Assembly (NCBI GenBank): GCA_011839185.1
Contig: GCA_011839185.1_3918.1
Strand: one strand, 5' to 3'
From: a phage
DNA: 64,000 nt
The position numbers and the translations under genes are program-made. Positions within the stretch are counted from its first letter, which is position 1; each line of letters starts with the position of its first letter. The notes under the pieces were generated by a model. It saw only the letters and a list, made by a program, of their open reading frames with translations, was not told the DNA's origin and made no database searches. Shown here piece by piece: positions 7,947 through 44,791 of this stretch.

Positions 7947-8005
7947 GTAAAACAATTCGAAGAAAAGGTTTAAAGAACGTTTATATTTATTGGTGAGGTA
8001 ACTAG

Positions 8006-8491
8006 ATGAATTACATGGAGATTAGACCATTTGACACAGCTAATGGTGAAGGGGTTCGTGTAAGCCTCTTCGTAGCTGGTTGTAAGCATCACTGCGAAGG
8101 CTGCTTTAACAGGGAGTCTTGGAAGTTTAATGCTGGTAAAGAGTTTACTTATGCAAACCTCTACGGTATCATTAAGTTAATGGATGATGAGGCCATCAGT
8201 GGGTTGTCAATACTCGGTGGAGAGCCTCTGGATGATAGAAATATTCAAGAGGTTACCAACATATGCAAGCGTATTAAAACTGTTTATCCAGAAAAGTCTA
8301 TATGGCTTTGGACAGGTTTTCAACTGCACGAAAAAATTCACCTAGATGTGATGAAATATGTTGACGTGGTGATTGATGGTAAGTATGATTCATCTAAACC
8401 AACAGTTAAACCATATCGTGGTTCTGATAACCAAAACCTCTGGAGAAAAGAGTATGGGTGGCAAGGCGATTGTCAGTGGAGAGCCGAGTAA
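8006..8491 (+). CDS. nrdG: anaerobic ribonucleotide reductase activating protein (radical SAM)
   Basis: 161 aa; CKHHCEGC cysteine cluster near the N-terminus; close to nrdD. Confidence 0.85.
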   Translation: MNYMEIRPFDTANGEGVRVSLFVAGCKHHCEGCFNRESWKFNAGKEFTYANLYGIIKLMDDEAISGLSILGGEPLDDRNIQEVTNICKRIKTVYPEKSIWLWTGFQLHEKIHLDVMKYVDVVIDGKYDSSKPTVKPYRGSDNQNLWRKEYGWQGDCQWRAE

Positions 8492-16889: not shown

Positions 16890-16906
16890 TAAGTAATTTC
16901 TTAAAA

Positions 16907-16928
16907 GGCTGCTTCGGCGGCCTTTTTT
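16907..16928 (+). terminator. rho-independent terminator
   Basis: GC-rich hairpin around TTCG followed by TTTTTT. Confidence 0.55.
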
Positions 16929-16989
16929 ATTTGTATTTTGTGCAGAGTGCTGTATAATTGTTGTCACGATAAACTAAACAGGAGAACCA

Positions 16990-17538
16990 ATGAAGAAATT
17001 GATTCTAGGTTTGTGCTTAATGTTTACAGCACACTTATCTTATGCAGTTGACTGCCCAGAGCTATCAATTAGCCAAAAAGTGAACATGTTAAAAGCTTAC
17101 CAGTATGGTGAGAATAACATGGGTAAAGGTTGGGGTATCACTCTAGCAGCTATAGCCTTACAAGAGTCAGAGTTAGGTCTGAAGGTAGAAAATAAAAAGA
17201 CCCATGACTATGGTATCTTCCAGAATCACTTGAAGACTGTTGTAAAGCGTAACAAAATTAGTCCTAATGTTGCTAAAAAGAAACTCTTAAAAGATTTTGA
17301 CTATGCCGCAAAAGAAACACATAAAGAGCTTGAGTTTTGGACGAAGGTACATGGTCAGCCAAAGTCAAAGAAGACTTTACAAAAAGTTTTAGCATCATAT
17401 AATGCTGGGTATTCGTACAAAACCCCTAAAGCTAAGAAATACTCTCAAGATGTCTATAACAATATGAAAGTTATCGCTCAATGTGAATTTGCAACAAACA
17501 TTTCTAAGGTAAATCATGAAAAAATTAAGAAAGTCTGA
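16990..17538 (+). CDS. secreted lytic transglycosylase / lysozyme-like protein
   Basis: 182 aa; N-terminal signal-peptide-like segment; ALQESELG ... DYGIFQ resembles the SLT catalytic region. Confidence 0.45.
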   Translation: MKKLILGLCLMFTAHLSYAVDCPELSISQKVNMLKAYQYGENNMGKGWGITLAAIALQESELGLKVENKKTHDYGIFQNHLKTVVKRNKISPNVAKKKLLKDFDYAAKETHKELEFWTKVHGQPKSKKTLQKVLASYNAGYSYKTPKAKKYSQDVYNNMKVIAQCEFATNISKVNHEKIKKV

Positions 17539-20240: not shown

Positions 20241-21026
20241 ATGGGTATTGTAAAAATCATCAATGGCGATATCTTTGCCGCATTTGATAAAGGTAAGTTT
20301 GACATTATTGGTCACGGTTGCAACTGTATGAATTTAATGGGTGCAGGTATCGCTGACAAGATTTCTAAACTTTACCCAAAAGCATATGAGACAGATACAG
20401 AAGTCTATCTATATGCAGGTGGCATAGGTCACAAACCCTGTGAAAATTTACTGGGTAATTTCTCTGTAGCACGTTTAAAACAAGGTCGTATAGCTAACCT
20501 TTACACTCAGCTTAAGACTGGTAAAGATGCCCGATACAGTGCTTTAGAGTCATCTTTGAAACAGCTTAACAGATACTGTGAAGTTAATCAGTTGAAGAAA
20601 GTTGGTTTACCTATGATTGGTGCAGGTATAGGTGGGCTGGACCCTCAAGCTGTCACAGTTATCATCAATCAGGTGATGAAGAGTGTAGATGTTTATCTGT
20701 ATGTCTATGAAGGAGAGATGTACCACAAGTTACGCTCAGGTTGGAAGAACTACTGTGAACCAGAATACTTTGCAGGTGTAGCAGTGTTCACGGATAACGC
20801 AGTTACCCTCTTCAGACGAAGAAAAGGTAAGATACATCAAAGTAACCCTCCGGTTGAAAGGATGTCTCTAAGTAACGCTCTAGTTACCCACCTGTCGAAG
20901 AGCAATCACAGAATAGCTGTGACATTTGGTAGTGATGCAGATGCTTACATCTATGCAAGAACTGATGAGGATATCGAGGCAATTTTCTCATCACCGGAAG
21001 TTACCTTCTTAGACGCAAAGAACTAA
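20241..21026 (+). CDS. macro-domain-like protein (ADP-ribose binding or processing)
   Basis: 261 aa; GHGCNCMNLMGAGIADKI resembles the macro-domain Gly-rich loop; not confirmed. Confidence 0.4.
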   Translation: MGIVKIINGDIFAAFDKGKFDIIGHGCNCMNLMGAGIADKISKLYPKAYETDTEVYLYAGGIGHKPCENLLGNFSVARLKQGRIANLYTQLKTGKDARYSALESSLKQLNRYCEVNQLKKVGLPMIGAGIGGLDPQAVTVIINQVMKSVDVYLYVYEGEMYHKLRSGWKNYCEPEYFAGVAVFTDNAVTLFRRRKGKIHQSNPPVERMSLSNALVTHLSKSNHRIAVTFGSDADAYIYARTDEDIEAIFSSPEVTFLDAKN

Positions 21027-21094
21027 GAAACTCTGTAGAATATTCACAATAGACTAAGCCTTTCTTATCTGGTAAATTTTTCAGGTAAGGGGGG

Positions 21095-21280
21095 CTTTTT
21101 CATTTCAGGATTGTGCAGGTAGAGTTCTGTATAGAAATCTGTAGAGAAAATTTTGAACTCCAAAGGGAAAATTCATTTTCAAGCTGTGCAGGTAATCTCC
21201 AAAGAGCTTTTTCATTTTCAAAACGTGCAGACCCCGCTCAGGTCGGGCAAGAAAAATCATTTTAGAATCGTGCAGGTAGG
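21095..21280 (+). repeat. four direct repeats of about 25 bp (TTTTCATTTTCA-N4-GTGCAGGTA)
   Basis: copies at 21095-21122, 21168-21195, 21207-21233, 21251-21280; non-coding context upstream of the early-gene array. Confidence 0.6.
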
Positions 21281-21302
21281 TTTTTATAGAGAGTCAGACC
21301 AA

Positions 21303-21334
21303 CCCCTCTCCCCCTCTTACTCCCCCTCTCCCCA
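21303..21334 (+). repeat. CT-rich polypyrimidine tract
   Basis: CCCCTCTCCCCCTCTTACTCCCCCTCTCCCC. Confidence 0.6.
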
Positions 21335-21453
21335 AAAGTCAAGAGAAAAATTTGTAGTGGATTGAAAAATAATTCTTGATTTGTGTTTTGTTTTGTGGTA
21401 GTCGTGCGCGCCCGTTCATTTCCCAACCTTACAAAAATATTTAATAAAAACCG

Positions 21454-21482
21454 TTGACACGCCAAACAAGTTTACGTACTAT
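21454..21482 (+). promoter_or_regulatory. sigma70-like promoter
   Basis: TTGACA, 17-nt spacer, TACTAT; downstream GGAGAATC RBS before the ATG at 21532. Confidence 0.55.
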
Positions 21483-21531
21483 TTGCATCAGACGGGCAAG
21501 CTAGCCACTTCCTAAACTGGAGAATCTAAAA

Positions 21532-21723
21532 ATGGCATCAAGAAAAATCAAAGTCGGTGATGAGGTTAACGTTAAGTATGAGCACTCTCATAAAATGTTA
21601 ACTATTCGCTCTTACAAGGTTTATCAGGTGGAAGCTATCCACGAAGACGGTACATTTTCCCTAAAAGGACATAGCGAACGTTTCCCTGCTGAATTGTTCG
21701 AAAAATGGAGTACTAAAAAATGA
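21532..21723 (+). CDS. small early protein
   Basis: 63 aa; conserved AAACTGGAGA RBS context. Confidence 0.55.
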   Translation: MASRKIKVGDEVNVKYEHSHKMLTIRSYKVYQVEAIHEDGTFSLKGHSERFPAELFEKWSTKK

Positions 21724-23538: not shown

Positions 23539-23571
23539 CACTAAATAAAGTCCTAAACTGGAGAATCTAAA

Positions 23572-23844
23572 ATGTATGCTACTAACAATGGTCGCACTTT
23601 AAATGTCACACTACGTCACTATGTAGATGGTGTCATGCACTTTGAAGATTTACAAGCTGAGCAACATATCTTAGATTGGCAAGTCGCAGGACTCCAAAAA
23701 ACTGCTACGGGATACGGTAAAAAGATTCCAACCAGTTGGAAAGTACACTACGAAGGACGTTTGCGCAGAATTTATCAGGATGTGCAAAGCAATAGTGCAT
23801 CGAGTTACATTATAGTAAAAGGTAAAAAACTGCATTTAGTGTAA
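23572..23844 (+). CDS. small early protein
   Basis: 90 aa behind a type-II cassette. Confidence 0.55.
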   Translation: MYATNNGRTLNVTLRHYVDGVMHFEDLQAEQHILDWQVAGLQKTATGYGKKIPTSWKVHYEGRLRRIYQDVQSNSASSYIIVKGKKLHLV

Positions 23845-24401: not shown

Positions 24402-24433
24402 ACTAAATAAAGTCCTAAACTGGAGAATCTAAA

Positions 24434-24637
24434 ATGGCTATTATTAACGGCTTACACATTGAAACAACTCACATCAAAGATATTAAAGTTGGTGATGTAG
24501 TCCTTTCCCACGGCGTAGAGAAAACTGTCACTGCAAAGGATATCAAAGAGGACTCTTTCATGGGTAGGACTCTCTTCGGTGATTCTTATTGCTTAGGTTA
24601 TCTTGCAGTTTTAAAAGTTGTCAAAAATAACAAATAA
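24434..24637 (+). CDS. small early protein
   Basis: 67 aa behind a type-II cassette. Confidence 0.5.
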   Translation: MAIINGLHIETTHIKDIKVGDVVLSHGVEKTVTAKDIKEDSFMGRTLFGDSYCLGYLAVLKVVKNNK

Positions 24638-27708: not shown

Positions 27709-28482
27709 TCGACGCAACGGGGCTAAATAGCCCCAGATACCTTAAAAGCTCCTTCTCATAGGGGCTTTTTTACGTCTATAAAGAATCCTTTCCCTTTCCT
27801 TTCCAGAATCTACCCCACTGATTCGATAGAGTCTATCTCATACCTTAAAAAGCAATAACTCTATAGTCTATTCTATAGCCCCTTATCAAATCAACTTAAA
27901 TAAAAGCCAATAACCCCAGAAAGGGGATGGCCCATTTAAACGCTCTATAAAGCTCTATAACAGCCTTATCAACCTAACTTAAGGGATTGCATTAACCCAC
28001 TCTAAAAAGCCCTTTATAAAGCTTCCTATAGCCTTAAAAGAATCTTATAAGGTGTAAGCTTTATCATCTCGTTAGTTTCTTGTGAATATCTAAAAAGGGC
28101 TTGTTAGTGTCTTAAAAGTATGTTATAGGGGCTTAAAAGTAGCTTAAAAGCTATGTGAAAGAGGCTATAAAGTTACGTAAATGCTAGCCCCCTTAACATT
28201 TTCTTAACAATTTCTTAACAAACCCTACATAGTTATGCTTGTTAGAGACTTGTTAGCCCCTTGTTAAATCTCTGTTAAAACCACGTAAAAGGCTTGTAAG
28301 AACCTTTGGCATAGCCTTAAAAGCTCCTGTAAAGCCCTATAAAGAGCTATCCATACAGTTGAGGGGTAAATACTAGGAAGAGGCTTAAAAGAGCTTACAA
28401 GGAGCTATAGAGAGCTTTTAAGAGGCATGTTTAAGGAATCACTAAGAAAGGAAAGGGAACGATAAGGAAGAGATAGTGACCA

Positions 28483-28757
28483 TGTTAATAGCTTGTTAAA
28501 AAGATTAAACACTTGTTAGAAACTTGTTAATTATCTTAACAAAATAACCCTTTAAAATTAACTTGTTAGCTCTTGTTAGTCATCTGTTAAGATTCTGTAA
28601 AGCCTATTCAGCACTTGTTAGAAAACTGTTACAGTCTTGTTAGTTCTGTTAAGAATCTGTTAAGACCTTTGAAGAGTTGTTAAGAAGATGTAAGGACTGT
28701 TAAGAGATTGTTAAGGATATTTTAAAATTTTGCAAAGTACTTGTAAGGGAGTTGTTA
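28483..28757 (+). repeat. helically phased array of at least 16 TGTTA(A/G) words
   Basis: TGTTA at 28483, 28494, 28514, 28524, 28564, 28574, 28585, 28615, 28627, 28638, 28648, 28658, 28678, 28698, 28709, 28753; spacings are multiples of 10-11 bp. Confidence 0.65.
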
Positions 28758-29317
28758 AGGGCTACCAAGCAGATATACATCTTCTACAGATATTTTTCAG
28801 TTCCTTCAAAGACCCTAAAAAATGACTTGATAGTCCTATTTTATAAAAATTTTAAAATTCTGAATAATTACCTATACAGTCTTTTAAAAATACAGGTAGA
28901 AACAGGCTTATAAGATACCTTGTTAGTACCGTGTTAGACCTTGTGAGATAAGGTCTGTAAAGATATTACTGTTAAGTTTGTTAAAACAGTCTATATAGAG
29001 GCTTAGTATTTCCTAGTGAACATCTATAGAGAGTCACATAGCTGACATAGAGATTAAGAGGTGTATAGGAGCTTCTAAGAAGGTGTAGAGAGATGGTTAA
29101 GGTGATTGTATAGGTTGTTAAGAAGGCTTGTTAGAGGGCTTGTTAGAAGGGTTATACAGAGGGGCTATTAAGACCACTAGATAGTTACTAAGATACTATA
29201 TAGTACTATATAACTATATAGAGAGTAAGATTAAGAAGGTTGTTAAGAAGGGTAGATATTTTATTCACATATGATGGTGACCCAGAGGTTGGGACAACCG
29301 ATAAATTTTATAAAAAT

Positions 29318-39011: not shown

Positions 39012-39088
39012 CTCTGTTTAGCTCAGCTTGGTAGAGCGTTCCGTTTGGGGCGGTAAGGCCGGAGGTTCAAGTCCTCCAACAGAGACCA
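39012..39088 (+). tRNA. tRNA-Pro (anticodon TGG)
   Basis: manual cloverleaf: acceptor CTCTGTT/AACAGAG, D-arm GCTCAGCTTGGTAGAGC, T-arm GGAGGTTCAAGTCCTCC, encoded CCA. Confidence 0.8.
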
Positions 39089-39095
39089 AATTAAT

Positions 39096-39173
39096 GTTCC
39101 AGTGGACAAAATGGTAAAGTCACCACTCTTTCAAAGTGGATATTTGAGGGTTCAAATCCCTTCTGGAACGCCA
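39096..39173 (+). tRNA. tRNA-Glu (anticodon TTC)
   Basis: acceptor GTTCCAG/CTGGAAC, anticodon arm CCACT-CTTTCAA-AGTGG, T-loop TTCAAAT, encoded CCA. Confidence 0.75.
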
Positions 39174-39180
39174 GTTTTGA

Positions 39181-39253
39181 CAGAAGACCAATTACAGCAA
39201 ACTTAATCTTATTCATCTGAAGGTAAATCGGACAAAGAAGAGATTTGGTCTGG
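39181..39253 (+). ncRNA. candidate structured element A (hairpin with conserved bulged closing stem)
   Basis: 5' CAGAAGACCAAT ... ATTTGGTCTGG 3'; AT-rich ~48-nt interior; one of four related elements. Confidence 0.35.
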
Positions 39254-39264
39254 TCATTAAGAAT

Positions 39265-39341
39265 TGCGGGTATAGAGAAAGGGCGTCTCACATGTCTCAT
39301 TAGCATGGTATCGGCAGGTTCGACTCCTGCACCCGCCTCCA
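39265..39341 (+). tRNA. tRNA with CAT anticodon (Met or Ile2)
   Basis: acceptor TGCGGGT/ACCCGCC with 1-72 mismatch, anticodon arm CATGT-CTCATTA-GCATG, T-arm GCAGGTTCGACTCCTGC, encoded CCA. Confidence 0.65.
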
Positions 39342-39347
39342 AATTTA

Positions 39348-39411
39348 CAGAAGACCGTTTACAGCAATATTTATTAAATTTTTAGCGGAAAAATTGAAAG
39401 ATACGGTCTGG
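39348..39411 (+). ncRNA. candidate structured element B
   Basis: 5' CAGAAGACCGTTTACAGCAA ... ACGGTCTGG 3'. Confidence 0.35.
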
Positions 39412-39424
39412 TAATACTAAACAT

Positions 39425-39501
39425 GGTTAGGAAGCACATAAGGTATGTGCGGTCGCCTGTTAAGCGAATGGCACAGGGTTCGAATCCCTGACTAACCGCC
39501 A
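39425..39501 (+). tRNA. tRNA-Asn (anticodon GTT)
   Basis: acceptor GGTTAGG/ACTAACC, D-arm GCACATAAGGTATGTGC, loop CTGTTAA, T-arm CAGGGTTCGAATCCCTG, encoded CCA. Confidence 0.75.
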
Positions 39502-39570
39502 AATTTAGGAGAGAAGCGATTGCTCACCGATTTGTAAGGTGCAAGTCCTTAGCCTGAATAGAAATCAAAT

Positions 39571-39658
39571 GTGTCGTTATCCCGTAGATGGTAGCGGTGG
39601 GGACTGTAAATCCCTTGTCATTGAGACTCGGTAGGTTCGACTCCTACACGGCACACCA
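39571..39658 (+). tRNA. tRNA-Tyr (anticodon GTA), long variable arm
   Basis: 88 nt; acceptor GTGTCGT/ACGGCAC, loop CTGTAAA, T-arm GTAGGTTCGACTCCTAC, encoded CCA. Confidence 0.75.
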
Positions 39659-39663
39659 ATAAA

Positions 39664-39741
39664 GGTTATGTAGTTTAATTTGGTTAAAATACTCCCCTGT
39701 CACGGGAGATGATGAGGGTTCAAATCCCTTCGTAACCGCCA
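39664..39741 (+). tRNA. tRNA-Asp (anticodon GTC)
   Basis: acceptor GGTTATG/CGTAACC, arm CTCCC-CTGTCAC-GGGAG, T-arm GAGGGTTCAAATCCCTT, encoded CCA. Confidence 0.8.
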
Positions 39742-39769
39742 ATTTTGAGAGGGCTATTTAGCCCCTCCC

Positions 39770-39797
39770 TTAAAGGGTTCTTACGAGTATCCTTTAA
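39770..39797 (+). promoter_or_regulatory. conserved hairpin with GTTCTTACGAG loop (copy 1 of 4)
   Basis: TTAAAGG-GTTCTTACGAGTAT-CCTTTAA. Confidence 0.4.
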
Positions 39798-39802
39798 AGG
39801 AG

Positions 39803-39876
39803 CAGAAGACCAAATACAGCAAGTTACTTAAAATTTCAAGCCAATTTAATTTTGAAAAATTTAAAACTTGGTCTGG
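39803..39876 (+). ncRNA. candidate structured element C
   Basis: 5' CAGAAGACCAAATACAGCAA ... CTTGGTCTGG 3'. Confidence 0.35.
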
Positions 39877-39889
39877 CTCAACAAATTTA

Positions 39890-40020
39890 CAGAAGACCGT
39901 TTACAGCAAAACTTAAACAATCTATTTCTCGGTAAAGAAAAGGCGAAGGTTCGATTCCTTCACTCGGCAGATGTCGAGTTGGTGTAATGGTAGCACTTAA
40001 GATGATAAACAACGGTCTGG
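39890..40020 (+). ncRNA. candidate structured ncRNA D: closing stem as A-C, enclosing a permuted tRNA-like module
   Basis: CAGAAGACCGTT ... AACGGTCTGG; inside in order: T-arm GAAGGTTCGATTCCTTC, 7-bp acceptor-like hairpin ACTCGGC-AGAT-GTCGAGT, D-arm GTGTAATGGTAGCAC. Confidence 0.45.
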
Positions 40021-40021
40021 T

Positions 40022-40165
40022 AATTATCTTTGTAGATAAGTTATTAAGCTTACCTGTGAGTATGCGACCACAAAGGGTGAAAGGGTAAATTCTAGATTTA
40101 AACCTAAAAAGGCACATCGCTACAGACCTTAAGCAAGTCTGGGTAGCTTATCTACAAAGATAATT
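40022..40165 (+). repeat. long inverted repeat (19-bp perfect arms) enclosing about 106 nt
   Basis: AATTATCTTTGTAGATAAG (40022-40040) and its exact reverse complement (40147-40165). Confidence 0.6.
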
Positions 40166-40169
40166 TAAT

Positions 40170-40245
40170 GGAAGTGTAGCAGAATGGTGATGCGGCAGAC
40201 TTTTAATCTGACAGGCGATGGGTTCGAATCCCTCCACTTCTACCA
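40170..40245 (+). tRNA. tRNA-Lys (anticodon TTT)
   Basis: acceptor GGAAGTG/CACTTCT, loop CTTTTAA, T-loop TTCGAAT, encoded CCA; T-stem imperfect in my parse. Confidence 0.65.
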
Positions 40246-40323
40246 AATTCACCCTTAACTGAGAAACACCTGCGCGGCTGGAAACACCCACTCAACAGTT
40301 TCTCTAACTAGGGTACTTATTCT

Positions 40324-40400
40324 GGTTCAGTCGCAGATAAGGTAATGCAAGGGTCTCATAAGCCCTATGAATGTGGGTTCGATTCCCATCTGAACCTCCA
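40324..40400 (+). tRNA. tRNA with CAT anticodon (Met, fMet or Ile2)
   Basis: acceptor GGTTCAG/CTGAACC, anticodon stem with three G-C pairs (AGGGT/GCCCT), loop CTCATAA, T-arm GTGGGTTCGATTCCCAT, encoded CCA. Confidence 0.7.
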
Positions 40401-40416
40401 ATTCGTTGGTGATATT

Positions 40417-40902
40417 ATGTTTTGTGCTAATAAAGATTGTGACAACAAAGCCGTTAAAGGTGGAAAGTATTGTTCACGCTCTTGTGCTGCAAGGGTAAAC
40501 AACAAGAGTCATCCAAAAAGAAGACAAGAAGGCTCTTGTCATTCATGTGGAAAGCAGACACCAAAATCAAGAAAGTATTGTGATGAATGTATTTCAAATG
40601 GTATTCTGAAACAATACAAAAACCCCGATGAAGAAAAGAAAGCGAAGTCACAACACGTTAAAAAGTCTCGTGACAAACTTAAGAGGGTTTTAGTTGATTA
40701 CAAAGGTGGTTGTTGCTCAATTTGTGGATACAATAAGTGCATAAAGGCTTTAGAGTTTCACCACTTAGACCCTAATACAAAGGACTTCACAGTAGGACAA
40801 AAACACTTCTCTATAGAGGTAATGAAGTCTGAAGTTGATAAGTGTGTATTACTGTGTGCAAATTGCCACAGAGAGGTACACGAAGGGGTAACAAAGCTGT
40901 GA
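40417..40902 (+). CDS. HNH homing-endonuclease-like protein with N-terminal zinc ribbons (start trimmed past the tRNA)
   Basis: C-terminal EFHHLDP...LLCANCHREVH HNH motif; several CxxC pairs; ORF-track start 40345 lies inside the tRNA. Confidence 0.65.
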   Translation: MFCANKDCDNKAVKGGKYCSRSCAARVNNKSHPKRRQEGSCHSCGKQTPKSRKYCDECISNGILKQYKNPDEEKKAKSQHVKKSRDKLKRVLVDYKGGCCSICGYNKCIKALEFHHLDPNTKDFTVGQKHFSIEVMKSEVDKCVLLCANCHREVHEGVTKL

Positions 40903-40971
40903 AAGCACATATGGATGTGCATTCGGCTGATAACCGAAAGGCAGAAGGTTCGAATCCTTCTCACAGTACCA
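40896..40971 (+). tRNA. tRNA-Ile (anticodon GAT)
   Basis: acceptor GCTGTGA/TCACAGT, D-arm GCACATATGGATGTGC, arm TTCGG-CTGATAA-CCGAA, T-arm GAAGGTTCGAATCCTTC, encoded CCA; first 7 nt overlap the HNH stop codon. Confidence 0.75.
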
Positions 40972-40986
40972 ATTTCAATAAAGTTG

Positions 40987-41015
40987 TTGACATTGAGATG
41001 TGACTACTTTATAGT
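40987..41015 (+). promoter_or_regulatory. sigma70-like promoter inside the tRNA array
   Basis: TTGACA, 17-nt spacer, TATAGT. Confidence 0.55.
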
Positions 41016-41182
41016 AACCTTAGTTTTCGTTGCGTAGCGTCTATTTTGCAAATTTAAAATAAATGCAAACGACAATGTTTTTCTGGCAGTAGCTTGATAG
41101 GCTAAACACCAGTGAGGTCTTCCAATCCCTCATCAAAGAATTTGGCGTACTCGCCCACGGTATGATTAATAAGGTGGGCATC

Positions 41183-41210
41183 TTTAAGGGCTTTCTAAGA
41201 GAGTCTTTAA
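41183..41210 (+). promoter_or_regulatory. conserved hairpin-motif variant (copy 2 of 4)
   Basis: GGCTTTCTAAGAGAGTCTTTAAAG, about 10 nt upstream of tRNA-Arg. Confidence 0.3.
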
Positions 41211-41218
41211 AGATTAAT

Positions 41219-41295
41219 GCACCCTTAGTTCAACTGGACAGAGCAAATGACTTCTAATCATTGAGTTACAGGTTCGAATCCTGTAGGGTGTGCCA
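41219..41295 (+). tRNA. tRNA-Arg (anticodon TCT)
   Basis: acceptor GCACCCT/AGGGTGT, arm AATGA-CTTCTAA-TCATT, T-arm ACAGGTTCGAATCCTGT, encoded CCA. Confidence 0.8.
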
Positions 41296-41437
41296 ATTAG
41301 TTAGCAGATTACTTAGACGACCTTATCGGGTCTCCGTGTAAGGAGGTGGTCTGTATCTCATGTTTTCCAGAACATGTAAATAATCTGAGAAGGGGCTTTA
41401 CAGTGTTGAGATAACAGGGTAAGCTTCGAATTATAGT

Positions 41438-41520
41438 ATGGGACGATGTTAAGACTCTAAGGCATGAGCAACGGCTTCCAACACCGTTTCAAAGGGGTTC
41501 AACTCCTCCGTCCCATGCCA
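41438..41520 (+). tRNA. atypical tRNA-like gene, anticodon CCA (Trp-type), about 7 extra nt between acceptor and D-arm
   Basis: 3' two-thirds parse canonically (arm ACGGC-TTCCAAC-ACCGT, T-loop TTCAACT, acceptor GTCCCAT, CCA) but the complementary 5' acceptor sits 7 nt too far upstream. Confidence 0.3.
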
Positions 41521-41533
41521 AAGTCTTATTAGG

Positions 41534-41621
41534 GGTAGGTAGCGGCTAATGGTAGCCAAACTGTCTTGAAAACAGTTGCCACTGTAGAGATACGGTGAGG
41601 GTTCGACTCCTTTACTTACCG
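41534..41621 (+). tRNA. tRNA-Ser (anticodon TGA), long variable arm
   Basis: 88 nt; acceptor GGTAGGT/ACTTACC, 3-bp D-stem, arm ACTGT-CTTGAAA-ACAGT, T-loop TTCGACT; no encoded CCA. Confidence 0.65.
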
Positions 41622-41843
41622 CCTAATAAGATTTAAAGCCAAGCTTCATTCGGATGTTGCTTTGGTATCCCTCGTGTATTGTCGTACACACTGATAAAGC
41701 ACCTAGTAGGTGTCACGGAGAAGAGATAATATCAAGCTCTCCAAAGGTTCTAGTCACCGGATTAAACAAGACTATGCAAAGACCTATTTAGGTCTTTTTA
41801 GAGGGCTTCTAAGGTTATTACAGCTTGTTGTGGAACCTTGTTG

Positions 41844-41868
41844 CTTAGGTTCTTAGAAGTTCTCTAAA
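41844..41868 (+). promoter_or_regulatory. conserved hairpin-motif variant (copy 3 of 4)
   Basis: TTAGGTTCTTAGAAGTTCTCTAA, about 10 nt upstream of a tRNA. Confidence 0.3.
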
Positions 41869-41878
41869 AAGATTTAAT

Positions 41879-41955
41879 GCACCTATAGCCCAACTGGTAG
41901 AGGCAGCAGACTTAGAATCTGCTCAGTGTGAGTTCGAATCTCTCTAGGTGTACCA
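41879..41955 (+). tRNA. tRNA with Leu anticodon TAG, class-I-length variable loop
   Basis: perfect anticodon stem GCAGA/TCTGC with loop CTTAGAA; Leu-like D-loop AACTGGTAGA; discriminator A; 5-nt variable loop. Confidence 0.6.
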
Positions 41956-41962
41956 AATTAAT

Positions 41963-42038
41963 GCAGGTGTAGCAAAATGGTTATGCGGCTGACTCTTAAT
42001 CAGTAAGACGATGGGTTCAATTCCCTCCACCTGTACCA
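41963..42038 (+). tRNA. tRNA-Lys (anticodon CTT)
   Basis: acceptor GCAGGTG/CACCTGT, loop CTCTTAA, T-loop TTCAATT, encoded CCA. Confidence 0.65.
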
Positions 42039-42044
42039 AACATT

Positions 42045-42120
42045 GGGGTCATAGTTTATATGGTTAAAATTCGAGTTTTGCAAACTTGGGAACTGAGTTC
42101 AATTCTCAGTGACTCCACCA
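42045..42120 (+). tRNA. tRNA-Ala (anticodon TGC)
   Basis: acceptor GGGGTCA/TGACTCC with G3-U70 wobble (Ala identity element), loop TTTGCAA, T-arm CTGAGTTCAATTCTCAG, encoded CCA. Confidence 0.8.
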
Positions 42121-42125
42121 ATTAG

Positions 42126-42201
42126 TGCATCCATAGTTTAAACGGGAAAATTACAGTCTTCCAAACTGAGGTTGAGGGTTCGATTCCCTCTGGATGCTCC
42201 A
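42126..42201 (+). tRNA. tRNA-Gly (anticodon TCC)
   Basis: acceptor GCATCCA/TGGATGC, loop CTTCCAA, T-arm GAGGGTTCGATTCCCTC, encoded CCA. Confidence 0.75.
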
Positions 42202-42208
42202 AATTAAT

Positions 42209-42284
42209 GCTCCTATCGTATAATTGGCTATTACGGTTGCCTTGTAAGCAACTTATCAGGGTTCGAATCCTTGTGGGAGCACCA
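42209..42284 (+). tRNA. tRNA-Thr (anticodon TGT)
   Basis: acceptor GCTCCTA/TGGGAGC, arm GTTGC-CTTGTAA-GCAAC, T-arm CAGGGTTCGAATCCTTG, encoded CCA. Confidence 0.8.
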
Positions 42285-42287
42285 ATT

Positions 42288-42376
42288 CAGAGGTCAAGTG
42301 AAAGACCGCTTTGAGTCAACTGAAGACCGTAACAAATTCCACGGAGTTGAGTTAGCGGCACAACTCCAGACCTCTT
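42288..42376 (+). ncRNA. candidate structured element E between tRNA-Thr and tRNA-Val
   Basis: 7-bp closing stem AGAGGTC/GACCTCT enclosing an internal hairpin GGAGTTG...CAACTCC and a GAAGACCG word shared with elements B and D. Confidence 0.3.
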
Positions 42377-42380
42377 TCAT

Positions 42381-42455
42381 ACTCGCTTAGTTTATATGGT
42401 AAAACATCACCCTTACAAGATGAAGAAAAAGGTTCAAGTCCTTTAGTGAGTACCA
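42381..42455 (+). tRNA. tRNA-Val (anticodon TAC)
   Basis: acceptor ACTCGCT/AGTGAGT, loop CTTACAA, T-arm AAAGGTTCAAGTCCTTT, encoded CCA. Confidence 0.7.
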
Positions 42456-42456
42456 T

Positions 42457-42534
42457 GTTCCAGTATCCCAATTGGCAGAGGATGCAAGCTCAAACCTTGT
42501 ACTAGTGACGGTTCGAATCCGTCTTGGAACACCA
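42457..42534 (+). tRNA. tRNA with Leu anticodon CAA, class-I-length variable loop
   Basis: acceptor GTTCCAG/TTGGAAC, Leu-like D-loop CAATTGGCAGA, loop CTCAAAC, T-arm GACGGTTCGAATCCGTC, discriminator A, encoded CCA. Confidence 0.55.
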
Positions 42535-42539
42535 ATTTT

Positions 42540-42615
42540 GCAGGATTAGTTCAAATGGATAGAGCAACAGTCTACGAAGCTGTTAGTAGGGGTTCGAATC
42601 CCTTATCCTGCGCCA
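42540..42615 (+). tRNA. tRNA-Arg (anticodon ACG)
   Basis: acceptor GCAGGAT/ATCCTGC, arm ACAGT-CTACGAA-GCTGT, T-loop TTCGAAT, encoded CCA. Confidence 0.75.
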
Positions 42616-42633
42616 GATAAGCAAGAGGAATTT

Positions 42634-42876
42634 ATGCAAACATTAATCGTCGTTGAACATGAAAATCCCAACAGTATTGAGTTTGTAAGGGTTCCCACTA
42701 TAGATACTCACATTTTCTTGAAAGTCGGATGGGAATGCGACCCGATAAAAGTAGGAAAATTTCTTGGTCATTACTTTGGTGGAAGACAATTTAAAAGTAT
42801 CAATTTTGAGACAGTATTACCAGAAAACTCAGAAACAGACAATAATACTTACCTCCTTACGAGGATTAGACAATGA
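42634..42876 (+). CDS. hypothetical protein inside the tRNA array
   Basis: ORF track 80 aa; does not overlap any tRNA. Confidence 0.45.
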   Translation: MQTLIVVEHENPNSIEFVRVPTIDTHIFLKVGWECDPIKVGKFLGHYFGGRQFKSINFETVLPENSETDNNTYLLTRIRQ

Positions 42877-43430
42877 GATACTTAAAATATGTTTCATGGA
42901 TTTTCTTAGCTTTGTTAGAACCATTTGCAGCAACCCTAGCAGTCATCTTAGCACCTTTCGTAGTTCCATTCTACAGTGAGAAGAAAGGGCATCTACCTTT
43001 TGGATTCAGATGGATGGAGACCTATGACAACCCTATTGATGGTGACAAAGGCCACGTTGAGAGATGGGCTAAGATTAGAAAGATTGGTAAGCTTGGTGTC
43101 TACATGCAGAGAGTTGGATGGCTCTGGAGAAACAAAGCTTATAACTTCTCTTACCATGTATTAGGAAGAGATGTAAAAGACGTTACTAAGTGGAAAGGTA
43201 ATATCAACGTAAGTTCTAACCCTGAAGATAATCAAACAGGTTATCTCCTAATGTGGAATAGCAATGCTTGGGGATTATTTGCTTTTATCCCATCAATTAA
43301 AGTCTTTGGTAAACAGTTTTACTGGAGAATTTATATTGGATGGAAACTAAAAAGTGTTGTCCCAGAAGAAAGAGCATTCTCAAGGGAAAGAGTTATGTTG
43401 GCATTCTTTATTCATCCACTGAGAAAGTAA
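42873..43430 (+). CDS. hypothetical protein with N-terminal hydrophobic segment
   Basis: 185 aa; Trp/aromatic-rich; start overlaps the upstream stop. Confidence 0.5.
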   Translation: MRYLKYVSWIFLALLEPFAATLAVILAPFVVPFYSEKKGHLPFGFRWMETYDNPIDGDKGHVERWAKIRKIGKLGVYMQRVGWLWRNKAYNFSYHVLGRDVKDVTKWKGNINVSSNPEDNQTGYLLMWNSNAWGLFAFIPSIKVFGKQFYWRIYIGWKLKSVVPEERAFSRERVMLAFFIHPLRK

Positions 43431-43438
43431 AGATTTAA

Positions 43439-43514
43439 AGGGGATTAGTTTACAAGGTTAAAACCTCGGTCTTTGAAATCGAAGAAGTTGGTTCAATTCC
43501 AACATCCCCCGCCA
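43439..43514 (+). tRNA. tRNA-Gln (anticodon TTG)
   Basis: acceptor AGGGGAT/ATCCCCC with weak 1-72 pair, arm TCGGT-CTTTGAA-ATCGA, T-arm GTTGGTTCAATTCCAAC, encoded CCA. Confidence 0.7.
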
Positions 43515-43516
43515 AT

Positions 43517-43595
43517 GCTCCATTACTCCAATTGGCAGAGAGGCCAGACTTAAAATCTGTGTTATGTATCGGTTCGAATCCGATATGGAGTACCA
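43517..43595 (+). tRNA. tRNA with Leu anticodon TAA, short variable loop
   Basis: acceptor GCTCCAT/ATGGAGT, Leu-like D-loop CAATTGGCAGA, loop CTTAAAA, T-arm ATCGGTTCGAATCCGAT, discriminator A, encoded CCA; anticodon stem imperfect. Confidence 0.5.
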
Positions 43596-43600
43596 AATTT

Positions 43601-43675
43601 AGCGGTATAGCATAACTGGCAATGCAACAGTCTCTGAAGCTGTCCTATTAAGGTTCAAATCCTTATGCCGCTGCC
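43601..43675 (+). tRNA. tRNA-Gln (anticodon CTG)
   Basis: acceptor AGCGGTA/TGCCGCT, arm ACAGT-CTCTGAA-GCTGT, T-arm TAAGGTTCAAATCCTTA, encoded CCA. Confidence 0.7.
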
Positions 43676-43680
43676 ACTTC

Positions 43681-43704
43681 TAAGGGTTCTTACGAGAGTC
43701 CTTA
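43681..43704 (+). promoter_or_regulatory. conserved hairpin with GTTCTTACGAG loop (copy 4 of 4)
   Basis: TAAGG-GTTCTTACGAGAGT-CCTTA just upstream of tRNA-His. Confidence 0.4.
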
Positions 43705-43707
43705 AAT

Positions 43708-43783
43708 GTGGCCTTATCATAAATGGTAATGACCCATGCTGTGAACATGGTCTATACGGGTTCAAATCCCGTAGGTCACCCCA
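43708..43783 (+). tRNA. tRNA-His (anticodon GTG)
   Basis: acceptor GTGGCCT/AGGTCAC, arm CCATG-CTGTGAA-CATGG, T-arm ACGGGTTCAAATCCCGT, discriminator C, encoded CCA; no encoded G at -1. Confidence 0.7.
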
Positions 43784-43789
43784 ATTTAT

Positions 43790-43865
43790 AGTCCAAGTAG
43801 CTTATATGGTTAAAGCGCGTGTCTGAAAAACATGAGAAGAGGGTTCAAATCCCACTGGACTACCA
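43790..43865 (+). tRNA. tRNA-Phe (anticodon GAA)
   Basis: D-arm GCTTATATGGTTAAAGC, arm CGTGT-CTGAAAA-ACATG, T-loop TTCAAAT, CCA; acceptor pairing imperfect so ends are approximate. Confidence 0.6.
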
Positions 43866-43881
43866 ATTTCAAAGGTGCTTA

Positions 43882-44616
43882 ATGAAAGAGATGACAGAAC
43901 AAGGTAAGGAGATTTTTAATCTCTTAAAAACCGGTAAAGGGTTCTCTAACCCACTTATTACTGGTGCAGCAGTTCTCGGTGGAACCGTAGCTGCTTCTAC
44001 ATCACTTGTAAGCTCTATTAGTTCTGTAACAGACCCTACAATGAAGGAGAAACTTGTTGCTGCTGGACTTACAACAGTCCTTCTAAACAGCTTTACAACA
44101 AGCCTTACAAGCACTACAGCAACTACTAAGACCCTAACAGACTACGGTCAAAAGTCTATTGATGAGTTTTCATCACGTATGCAGGTAGCAAAGGGATACT
44201 CCAATGTTATGGGTGCAGCAGGAGAACAAGTTGGTTGTACACCATTCAGTGGTATTATGGGTGTTGCTACAGAGTATGGTCAAAAAGCTATTGACATGAT
44301 GAACAGTACACTAGATAGTGTTAATGGTGTGTTAAGTGACTTACAAGATGCTATTGACAAAGGTCTTGATACTATTTCTGATTTAGCTGAGCAAGCTGTT
44401 AGTAAGATTAATGAAGGTATTTCAAAAATTACAGCTTATGCAGATGAAGTTGTGCAGATGATTGAAGAAGAAGCTGCTCTTATTGCAGAGTACCTTAAAA
44501 CGAATATCAATGGGTTCTTAGCAGGTATCTTACCAGACTGGTTTGATGATGCCTGTAAAACTGGTGTAATTGACACTATTGCAACACCAGAAATGAAGAA
44601 CGCATTACAGAAATAA
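43882..44616 (+). CDS. hypothetical protein (Ser/Thr-rich segment then helical region; start trimmed past tRNA-Phe)
   Basis: ATG at 43882 preceded by AAAGGTG; ORF-track start 43819 lies inside the tRNA. Confidence 0.5.
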   Translation: MKEMTEQGKEIFNLLKTGKGFSNPLITGAAVLGGTVAASTSLVSSISSVTDPTMKEKLVAAGLTTVLLNSFTTSLTSTTATTKTLTDYGQKSIDEFSSRMQVAKGYSNVMGAAGEQVGCTPFSGIMGVATEYGQKAIDMMNSTLDSVNGVLSDLQDAIDKGLDTISDLAEQAVSKINEGISKITAYADEVVQMIEEEAALIAEYLKTNINGFLAGILPDWFDDACKTGVIDTIATPEMKNALQK

Positions 44617-44618
44617 AT

Positions 44619-44711
44619 GGAAGATTAACCCTAAAAGGTAAGGGAGCAGTTTGCTAAACTGCCAGTAGCTGAGAAATCGGTGTACCAGTTCAAGTCTGGT
44701 ATCTTCCTCCA
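44619..44711 (+). tRNA. tRNA-Ser (anticodon GCT), long variable arm
   Basis: 93 nt; acceptor GGAAGAT/ATCTTCC, arm GCAGT-TTGCTAA-ACTGC, T-arm ACCAGTTCAAGTCTGGT, encoded CCA. Confidence 0.75.
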
Positions 44712-44715
44712 ATTT

Positions 44716-44791
44716 GAATCCGTGACAGAAATGGCTATGTGCCTGTCTGCAAAACAGGTTTATAAGGGTTCGAGTCCCTTCGGATTCTCCA
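44716..44791 (+). tRNA. tRNA-Cys (anticodon GCA)
   Basis: acceptor GAATCCG/CGGATTC, arm CCTGT-CTGCAAA-ACAGG, T-arm AAGGGTTCGAGTCCCTT, encoded CCA. Confidence 0.8.

Follow-up and report, generated by a model that had tools for sequence, protein, structure and literature searches.

Four direct repeats of a conserved element, located in a non-coding gap in the genome of a Felix O1-like phage (Ounavirinae), and a fifth, solitary copy of the same element, located over the core of a promoter, are best read, if tentatively, as operator-type cis sites for one sequence-specific DNA-binding protein, probably encoded by the phage itself. The stretch analyzed, hereafter the window, comprises 64,000 nucleotides of the GenBank assembly GCA_011839185.1 (contig GCA_011839185.1_3918.1), and the four-copy array is found within a 505-nt gap (21027-21531) that separates a macro-domain gene from an array of small early genes. 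Direct observation covers the existence, uniqueness, conservation, and geometry of the sites, as well as the fact that one of them overlaps a promoter core, while the assignment of a regulator is suggested by sequence patterns, and we hold it with somewhat less than even confidence. The array element is the most conserved non-coding feature of its region, and the array is well conserved and new as a cis element, although its type, either an operator or an iteron array, is a familiar one. No description of this repeat array was found in the literature, and its repeats are not among the twelve direct repeats of at least 24 bp listed in the Felix O1 genome paper (PMC3185647).

The Repeats and the Repeat Unit

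The core of the element, TCATTT-N7-GTGCAG, is present in the 64 kb exactly four times, at 21100, 21173, 21212, and 21257, always on the plus strand, with start-to-start spacing of 73, 39, and 45 bp. The number expected by chance is 0.03, based on dinucleotide shuffles, and none of 100 shuffles reaches four, so the four repeats reported in these places by an initial annotation of the sequence are real. The description of the unit had to be revised. No copy matches the proposed full consensus, TTTTCATTTTCA-N4-GTGCAGGTA (copy 3 ends with GTGCAGACC, and an A-run takes the place of the initial T-run in copies 2 and 4), and the conserved unit, originally given as approximately 25 bp, is approximately 33 bp long. 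As deduced from 81 distinct units anchored on GTGCA, it reads RRARRG-n-(AAA or TTT)-T-TCATTTY-MRAWTY-GTGCA-G/T-R-T-A, and it is composed of three blocks, a purine-rich block ending in G, a W-run followed by TCATTTY, and a spacer, MRAWTY, followed by GTGCA-G/T-R-T-A (GTGCAGGTA in the consensus). These blocks are spaced by 11-12.5 bp, and therefore lie on one face of the helix. The three to four nucleotides preceding TCATTT are either AAA or TTT (34 versus 47 of the 81 units) and never G or C, and as A-runs and T-runs both possess A-tract geometry, their interchange suits duplex DNA, and not a fixed RNA sequence. Within the window, the shared motif accounts for approximately 26-33 nt of each 39-73-nt interval, and neither long inverted repeats nor palindromes were found at the array.

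Copy 3 is the best conserved (0.98 identity over 10 genomes), and copy 2 is missing in some relatives (through a 41-nt deletion in BPSELC-1). The T-run of copy 1 (core TCATTTCAGGATTGTGCAG) is common with the tail of the terminator of the macro-domain gene (21056-21097), an overlap that, like the fifth copy at 16916-16949, was not part of the initial annotation. Exact copies of GTGCAGGTA number only five in the window, as they do in the complete genome of Felix O1, and all five are confined to 940 bp; three belong to the array, and the other two are internal to the macro-domain gene (20341-20349 and 20620-20628), the one at 20620 being part of ATTGGTGCAGGTATAGGTGGG, which, if in frame, would encode a glycine-rich stretch, I-G-A-G-I-G-G.

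A protein-coding gene in the gap was considered and rejected, because the spacing of the repeats shifts by 2 nt between genera (73/39 versus 75/41), because a 41-nt deletion occurs, and because an allele swap occurs. Careful annotations of relatives show a terminator at the left edge of the gap, a promoter at the right edge, and nothing else. Other records carry mutually conflicting open reading frames (ORFs) in the gap, on both strands, which have been dropped by RefSeq for Felix O1, and it is almost certain that the ORFs annotated across the array do not represent genes. Four such overlapping ORFs, on both strands, are annotated across the array in the first Felix O1 record (AF320576.1), at 7994-8315 (approximately 21105-21426 of the window), and conflicting ORFs over the array are still called in newer records, those of FO1a (gp14), Mijalis118, Silverhawkium (gp124), and ESh21.

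Conservation and Distribution

Absence of the repeats from related phages, named in the initial annotation as part of what would refute it, is not observed, and the repeats prove to be conserved in four genera. The array is found in the same place and with near-fixed spacing in all four, as well as in one divergent metagenomic phage, L141; the spacing is 73/39/45 in Felixounavirus and Suspvirus, 75/41/45 in Mooglevirus, and 37/37/39 in Kolesnikvirus, and three-copy variants, resulting from unit-sized deletions, are present among relatives. Felix O1-like phages (Felixounavirus) make up nearly all of the 223 records matching positions 20900-21600 at 85-95% identity (megablast). In a more distant BLAST search, the gap has matches in 258 records, and a separate search with the macro-domain protein (tblastn) likewise gives 258 records in which at least 80% of the protein is covered. 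In an alignment of ten genomes representing three genera, identity to the window is 0.90-0.98 for the cores and 0.96 for a block to the right of the array (21334-21380), with drifting spacers, and with values of 0.66 for an intervening CT-rich tract and 0.68 for the early promoter. Across genera, the gap is conserved as much as, or more than, the macro-domain gene (0.85 versus 0.75 in SUSP2; 0.78 versus 0.71 in ESh21).

One example of conservation over a large distance is presented by the Kolesnikvirus genomes (Erwinia phages), in which four copies of TTTTTCATTTT-N6-GTGCATAG follow the macro-domain gene and its terminator, in a gap that shares almost no other sequence with that of the window; here the whole 37-39-nt unit is repeated, and the units are approximately 70% alike. 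Another example is L141 (IMGVR_UViG_3300045988_063805), a divergent 88-kb metagenomic phage, with four to five copies directly after a macro-domain gene encoding 148 aa. A search of IMG/VR with a two-copy pattern returned 30 loci, all on contigs of 51-94 kb, and all recognizable arrays in metagenomes are of the Ounavirinae type. No related arrays were found in 185,579 bacterial genomes, in PLSDB plasmids, or in 5,426 Escherichia coli genomes. Matches outside the Ounavirinae were rejected as unrelated satellites or coding repeats; such spurious matches arise because a tandem repeat needs only 11 specified bases matched once.

Two kinds of look-alikes were noted. A single 38-nt sequence, TTTTAGCATTTTAGGATTGTGCAGGTAATG, is found in a lambdoid prophage (L157, 3001-3039; E. 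coli NZ_CP025916 and nine other genomes), directly after a hairpin downstream of the Q antiterminator gene. It was rejected as a counterpart, its 84.6% identity to the terminator tail plus copy 1 (E = 2) being at chance level. Twin 37-bp repeats, CTCGCTCATTTWARGGCTGTGCATCACC, follow a hairpin-like inverted repeat in contigs L161, L166, L196, L215, L228, L231, and L255, which are from metagenome-assembled genomes of Lachnospiraceae and from metagenomes; these repeats possess the TCATTT-N7-GTGCA core and the pitch of the phage units, a likeness that is probably a coincidence.

A Solitary Site on a Promoter Core

When the 64 kb are scanned with a 34-nt weight matrix built from relatives only, the copies of the array score 36-42 bits, the fifth site scores 21.6 bits, and all other positions score at most 9.9 bits. 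Scans of the whole genomes of Felix O1 and SUSP2 reveal exactly five sites, the array plus one solitary site, in a single orientation. The solitary site is maintained in Felixounavirus (Felix O1), Suspvirus (SUSP2), and Mooglevirus loci, at 17-29 bits, and its context is constant, with the T-tail of the rIIB terminator leading into TTATTTG-N6-TGTGCAG, followed by N7, TATAAT, and ORF3 downstream. In the window, this site covers the -35 and spacer region of the promoter (Table 1); no -35 element was found at this promoter by a consensus scan. In the record of phage ASO1A, a promoter is annotated at the homologous place. The combination GTGCAG-N7-TATAAT occurs once in the window, and looser matches are at chance level.

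The promoter in question heads a 4.2-kb operon that encodes an SLT-like lipoprotein, a polynucleotide kinase, ORF5, Rz/Rz1-like proteins, small ORFs, and the macro-domain protein; its end is marked by the macro terminator and the array of four copies. A single operon is thus bracketed by the motif, which is present once over the promoter core and four times immediately beyond the terminator.

Table 1. Elements of the array region and of the ORF3-to-macro operon (positions in the window)
Feature	Position	Strand	Basis or score
Intrinsic terminator after rIIB; T-tail is the T-run of the fifth site	16903..16926	+	10-bp stem, 5 GC pairs, T-tail
Solitary fifth copy, GGCGGCCTTTTTTATTTGTATTTTGTGCAGAGTG, over -35/spacer of the ORF3-operon promoter	16916..16949	+	21.6 bits
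Perfect -10, TATAAT, 7 nt after GTGCAG, 32 nt before ATG at 16990	16953..16958	+	Sequence
Macro-domain gene ("phosphatase," Felix O1 ORF13)	20241..21026	+	Pfam Macro, E 1e-07
Intrinsic terminator of the macro operon; T-tail enters copy 1	21056..21097	+	Stem kept in alignment of relatives
Repeat copy 1, core at 21100-21118	21089..21122	+	41.8 bits
Repeat copy 2, core at 21173-21191	21162..21195	+	35.8 bits
Repeat copy 3, core at 21212-21230	21201..21234	+	41.8 bits
Repeat copy 4, core at 21257-21275	21246..21279	+	37.7 bits
Homopyrimidine mirror repeat, 13+5+13, H-DNA type	21303..21333		Optional allele
Near-invariant block, AAAAGTCAAGAGAAAAATTTGTAGYGGATTGAAAAATAATTCTTGA	21334..21380		0.96 identity over three genera
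AT-rich stretch, 78% AT, least stable of the gap	21341..21400		Stability in 40-bp windows
Sigma-70-type promoter of the first early-array gene (21532-21723), TTGACA-17-TACTAT	21454..21482	+	10/12

Proposed Operator Sites for One Regulator

The suggestion of the initial annotation, of an operator or enhancer array, agrees in its first part with the reading that we favor, of a private motif with a site on a promoter core, a flank in which A-runs and T-runs are interchangeable, and a lack of RNA structure, ORFs, and Rfam matches; however, the promoter that is overlapped heads the upstream ORF3-to-macro operon, not the early array. Under the operator reading, a protein or a small oligomer would read one duplex face of the approximately 33-bp asymmetric unit. 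Occupancy of the site at 16916-16949 would set initiation of the ORF3-to-macro operon, the site being either an activator box that makes up for the lack of a -35 or a target of repression. The four sites of the array may assemble a complex of several proteins where the early-gene array begins, which could serve as a roadblock or an insulator against read-through and antisense transcription; alternatively, this complex could be the loop partner of the promoter site, or the array could be a high-avidity titration sink timing the switch.

Similar to multi-site operators of phages and plasmids, the sites are short, repeated, non-coding, and private to their own genome, they are conserved while the spacers drift, and one of them is positioned over a promoter core. 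Unlike those, the unit lacks symmetry, is long (approximately 33 bp), and never changes orientation, the cluster (21089-21279) is located 60-200 bp from promoter-like elements and not over them, with approximately 60-100 bp between it and the near-invariant block that contains back-to-back promoter-like elements, and no cognate regulator gene is recognized next to it. Asymmetric operators have a precedent in the C1 repressor of phage P1. One candidate binder is the phage-encoded ORF85 of Felix O1, from outside of the window, which carries an HTH_3 domain (E 3e-09). In by-eye comparisons, the motif did not fit the sites of IHF, Fis, Fur, ArgR, OmpR/PhoB, MarA/SoxS/Rob, or AraC/XylS, nor those of sigma-54, sigma-32, or sigma-E, nor type I restriction sites (EcoKI, AAC-N6-GTGC).

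A number of observations weigh against this reading. Approximately 175-200 bp separate the array and the strong early promoter, a large distance for a simple operator. None of the 25 neighboring or early-array proteins scanned has a recognized DNA-binding domain. ORF5, the best conserved uncharacterized protein of the operon, is present wherever the array is (60% identity in Kolesnikvirus, 43% in L141), and its structural model suggests a WYL/Sm-like barrel devoid of a helix-turn-helix. In Kolesnikvirus, no solitary site of at least 12 bits was detected in the 4-6 kb upstream of the array. By reverse transcription PCR (RT-PCR), RNA of "ORF14" of Felix O1 was detected with a maximum at 25 min, the strand not being resolved, while ORF13 RNA peaked at 5 min (PMC3185647); judging from ORF numbering, "ORF14" would be an ORF once called inside the gap. 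Finally, iterons along with a solitary promoter copy would give the same picture.

An Origin of Replication?

As to this last point, the four repeats could be iterons bound by a phage initiator, with the stretch at 21341-21400 serving as an unwinding element, a reading that we consider unlikely on the whole, and that fits nearly as well as the operator reading. It draws on the features to the right of the array. The CT-rich tract starts at 21303, as originally described, but extends for 31 nt, to 21333, and not for 32, with a single purine, A21319. It forms a perfect mirror, CCCCTCTCCCCCT-CTTAC-TCCCCCTCTCCCC, and no canonical G-quadruplex motif other than the one on its minus strand is present in the 64 kb. 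The tract is not an obligatory part of the element, because an unrelated, G-rich allele is present in 12 of the 32 distinct relative sequences downstream of copy 4 (18 are CT-rich, and two are of other types); in mio, Tribble, and BPSELC-1, the tract is replaced by GGTGGGTGCAGGTGGG....

The near-invariant block that follows opens with AAAAGTCAA, which is unchanged in all ten aligned genomes, and whose reverse complement, TTGACT, resembles a -35 element pointing leftward, at the array. In the window, the matching leftward -10 is weak (TAAGAG at 17 bp; TGG-TAGCCT in the alternative allele). Three loci of Kolesnikvirus have, at the homologous GTCAAG, the -35 of a leftward promoter that matches at 10/12, TTGAC[G/C]-18-TATACT, and that is back-to-back with the rightward early promoter. 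The invariance of TTGACT, along with these Kolesnikvirus promoters, suggests that, in at least some genera, the array is probably approached by leftward transcription. Further right, the consensus promoter initially placed at 21454 was found there, as a match of 10/12. The promoter scan predicted no sigma-70 promoter within 21027-21453, called none inside the array in the window, mio, or Mijalis, and the scan of the gap region in the window called no minus-strand terminator.

In the origin scenario, transcription from the divergent promoters, together with a G-rich R-loop or G-quadruplex at the CT-rich tract, would activate or prime replication, and the solitary copy might autoregulate an initiator encoded in the ORF3 operon, by analogy with R6K. 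In that plasmid, an eighth iteron is found at the pir promoter. The array, the tract, the AT-rich block, and the back-to-back promoters would then add up to an iteron-type origin for a T7-type replisome, activated via an R-loop by host polymerase, a composite that we regard as possible but doubtful. Consistent with it are the presence of four same-orientation direct repeats, on the plus strand, at a single non-coding locus (in the Felix O1 and SUSP2 genomes), the adjoining 60-bp stretch, at 78% AT the least stable of the gap, the leftward Kolesnikvirus promoter into the array, with the -35-like AAAAGTCAA invariant elsewhere, the only G-quadruplex/H-DNA motif of the window, in the tract, and the T7-type set of primase-helicase, polymerase, and exonuclease possessed by the phage. 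With iteron origins (lambda ori, R6K gamma ori, T4 oriE), the array shares three to five one-way direct repeats beside an AT-rich stretch, one further copy at a promoter, and a copy number that varies among relatives by unit-sized deletions. However, the pitch of the array is 37-73 bp versus approximately 22 bp, a spacing that, like the approximately 33-bp unit, is atypical for iterons, helical phasing differs between genera, no DnaA box (TTWTNCACA) is present in 21027-21531, and no initiator-like protein or gene is recognized nearby (Pfam). The AT-rich block is only within the least stable 1.8% of the 40-bp windows in the 64 kb, the G-rich/CT tract is dispensable, and GC skew drops across the site instead of rising, though skew gives no origin signal here, because it mostly follows transcription. 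No mapped replication origin was found in the literature for Felix O1-like phages.

An RNA Element?

Leftward transcription from the conserved -35-like element raises the prospect of a non-coding RNA of approximately 250-300 nt that would span the array and end with the hairpin at 21097-21056, or else be produced rightward by read-through of the terminator, and we deem such an RNA improbable. The 37-45-nt period is close to the 34-45 nt of antitoxin repeats, for which there is a precedent of a phage escape locus. In Kolesnikvirus, the entire 37-39-nt unit is repeated and the 10/12 leftward promoter is present in three loci. Every unit has AAAU on the minus strand, and the "ORF14" RNA detected by RT-PCR at 25 min would suit the same interpretation. 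The array has in common with ToxI and pseudo-ToxI (PMC3475682, PMC5086642) tandem units of approximately 36-45 nt in a phage intergenic region and the short strings GTGCAG.TA and AAATTCA. These strings are found, however, in swapped phasing, only approximately 26-33 nt of each 39-73-nt interval are repeated in the window, A-runs and U-runs are exchanged inside the unit, and, unlike in ToxI, the units are not near-identical and the layout of an upstream promoter, a downstream terminator, and toxN is lacking. No Rfam match was obtained in the gap even at E of up to 10 (the only Rfam matches in the window are 24 tRNAs, outside the gap), folding is no better than that of shuffled sequences (z of +1.36 and +0.36), covariation in alignment folding is negligible (-0.59 kcal/mol), the leftward -10 in the window is weak (TAAGAG), with no minus-strand terminator called, and no similar array was found beside a toxin gene in PLSDB, in 5,426 E. 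coli genomes, or in 185,579 representative genomes. The solitary promoter site would be left without explanation. A mimic of a type III antitoxin (pseudo-ToxI), specifically, is not convincing, as ToxI (AGGTGATTTGCTACCTTTAAGTGCAGCTAGAAATTC) shares only short, out-of-phase strings, and the array lacks near-identical units in the window, predicted structure, and a bacterial counterpart.

Promoters, DNA Entry, or a Decoy?

The alternative promoter class put forward in the initial annotation was also considered, in a form in which every unit would serve as a promoter, or as an activator-dependent "middle" box in the style of T4 MotA, and the array would be a promoter cluster; we find this quite improbable. 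In T4 middle promoters, the MotA box takes the place of the -35 and is centered on -30. The solitary site is alike in that a conserved box is found where the -35 would be, upstream of an excellent -10, copy 1 reads TTTTCA-17-TAGAGT (8/12), and some Kolesnikvirus units read, on the minus strand, TTGCCA-17-TAAAAT (10/12). Unlike in T4, there is one such promoter per genome, the box spans approximately -38 to -20, and no -10 follows the array copies at the distance seen for the solitary site, or at any other fixed distance (TATAGA follows copies 1 and 4 by 11 and 9 nt, and none follows copies 2 and 3). GTGCAG-N7-TATAAT being found once and the sites numbering only five per genome, a promoter class is not supported, promoters are not called by the scan in the arrays of the window, mio, and Mijalis, and a pitch of 37-45 bp is too tight for independent binding of polymerases. 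No homologues of MotA or AsiA have been reported for Felix O1 (PMC3185647).

Least probable, and in our estimate very much so, is a DNA-entry or end element, such as an injection stop of the T5 type, or a decoy titrating a host defense protein, as aba does for BstA. The array is 6.9 kb, approximately 8% of the genome, from the terminal repeat: phage Pr103Blw has an annotated direct terminal repeat of 581 bp (PMC8303462), the counterpart of which in the window is 28187-28768 (93% homologous), a stretch that therefore marks the physical genome ends, and the array thus bounds an approximately 7-kb terminal block of small early genes. For the same reason, that the terminal repeat is 6.9 kb to the right, the array was rejected as a physical genome end or a pac site. 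The T5 stop (Davison, bioRxiv 10.1101/866236) is likewise a conserved non-coding repeat region, at 7.9% (approximately 8%) from the genome end, where a terminal block of small and variable genes for host takeover has its inner boundary, the L141 array adjoins TTAACA boxes that resemble those of the Felix terminal repeat, and BstA/aba shows that DNA-only anti-defense elements exist. Unlike the T5 stop, the array lies outside the terminal repeat and has neither DnaA or DnaA-like boxes nor palindromes or long inverted repeats, its distance to the end is shorter in Felix O1 than in the window (by the gene map), due to fewer early genes there, two-step injection is not known for these myoviruses, and neither entry nor decoy explains the solitary site on a promoter. 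The probability left over from all of these readings goes to something else.

As to the terminal repeat region itself (28187-28768), transcription from the plus and the minus strand converges there, and it contains at least 20 copies of CTTGTTA(A/G)/CTGTTAAG (reverse complement TTAACA), resembling the T5 "DnaA*" boxes, TTATTAACA. In L141, approximately 10 TTAACA boxes, including an exact TTATTAACA, directly follow the TCATTT...GTGCA array (locus positions ~600-760). The corresponding distance in the window, between the array and the terminal repeat with its many TTAACA boxes, is approximately 7 kb and is occupied by early genes.

Implications

Felix O1-like phages are the classic Salmonella typing phages, and they are common candidates for therapy and biocontrol. 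The array element supplies a defined 34-bp bait for finding a regulator or an initiator, and there are two precise places for tests, 16916-16958 and 21089-21380. Genome annotations with ORFs across the gap need correction, and insertion of a payload into this apparently empty gap should be expected to strike a functional element. In the Felix O1 genome paper (PMC3185647), the temporal regulation of transcription is stated as not known.

Neighboring Features

The macro-domain gene, the last gene of the operon bracketed by the motif, is the invariable left neighbor of the array, with synteny in all relatives, including L141. Its product (261 aa) has a C-terminal extension of approximately 110 aa that is absent from the 148-aa homologue in L141, and the macro domain is detected in 2,793 phage records, including the tk-vs region of T4 (tblastn). 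This protein may be a counter-defense enzyme removing ADP-ribose, a DarG mimic (cf. PMC11481870). On the right side, the gap is followed by the first gene (21532-21723) of a long run of small plus-strand ORFs. A 22-nt cassette, TCCTAAACTGGAGAATCTAAAA, comprising a 5′ untranslated region (5′-UTR) and a ribosome-binding site, precedes many of these early-array genes in exact or near-exact copies (21510-21531, 23551-23572, 24413-24434, and approximately six further places). Additional BLAST "places" that the gap has in the SUSP2 and Mooglevirus records were considered as further arrays and rejected, as they are copies of this cassette. The 24 tRNA genes, expected in Felix O1-like phages, are clustered on the plus strand at 39012-44788.

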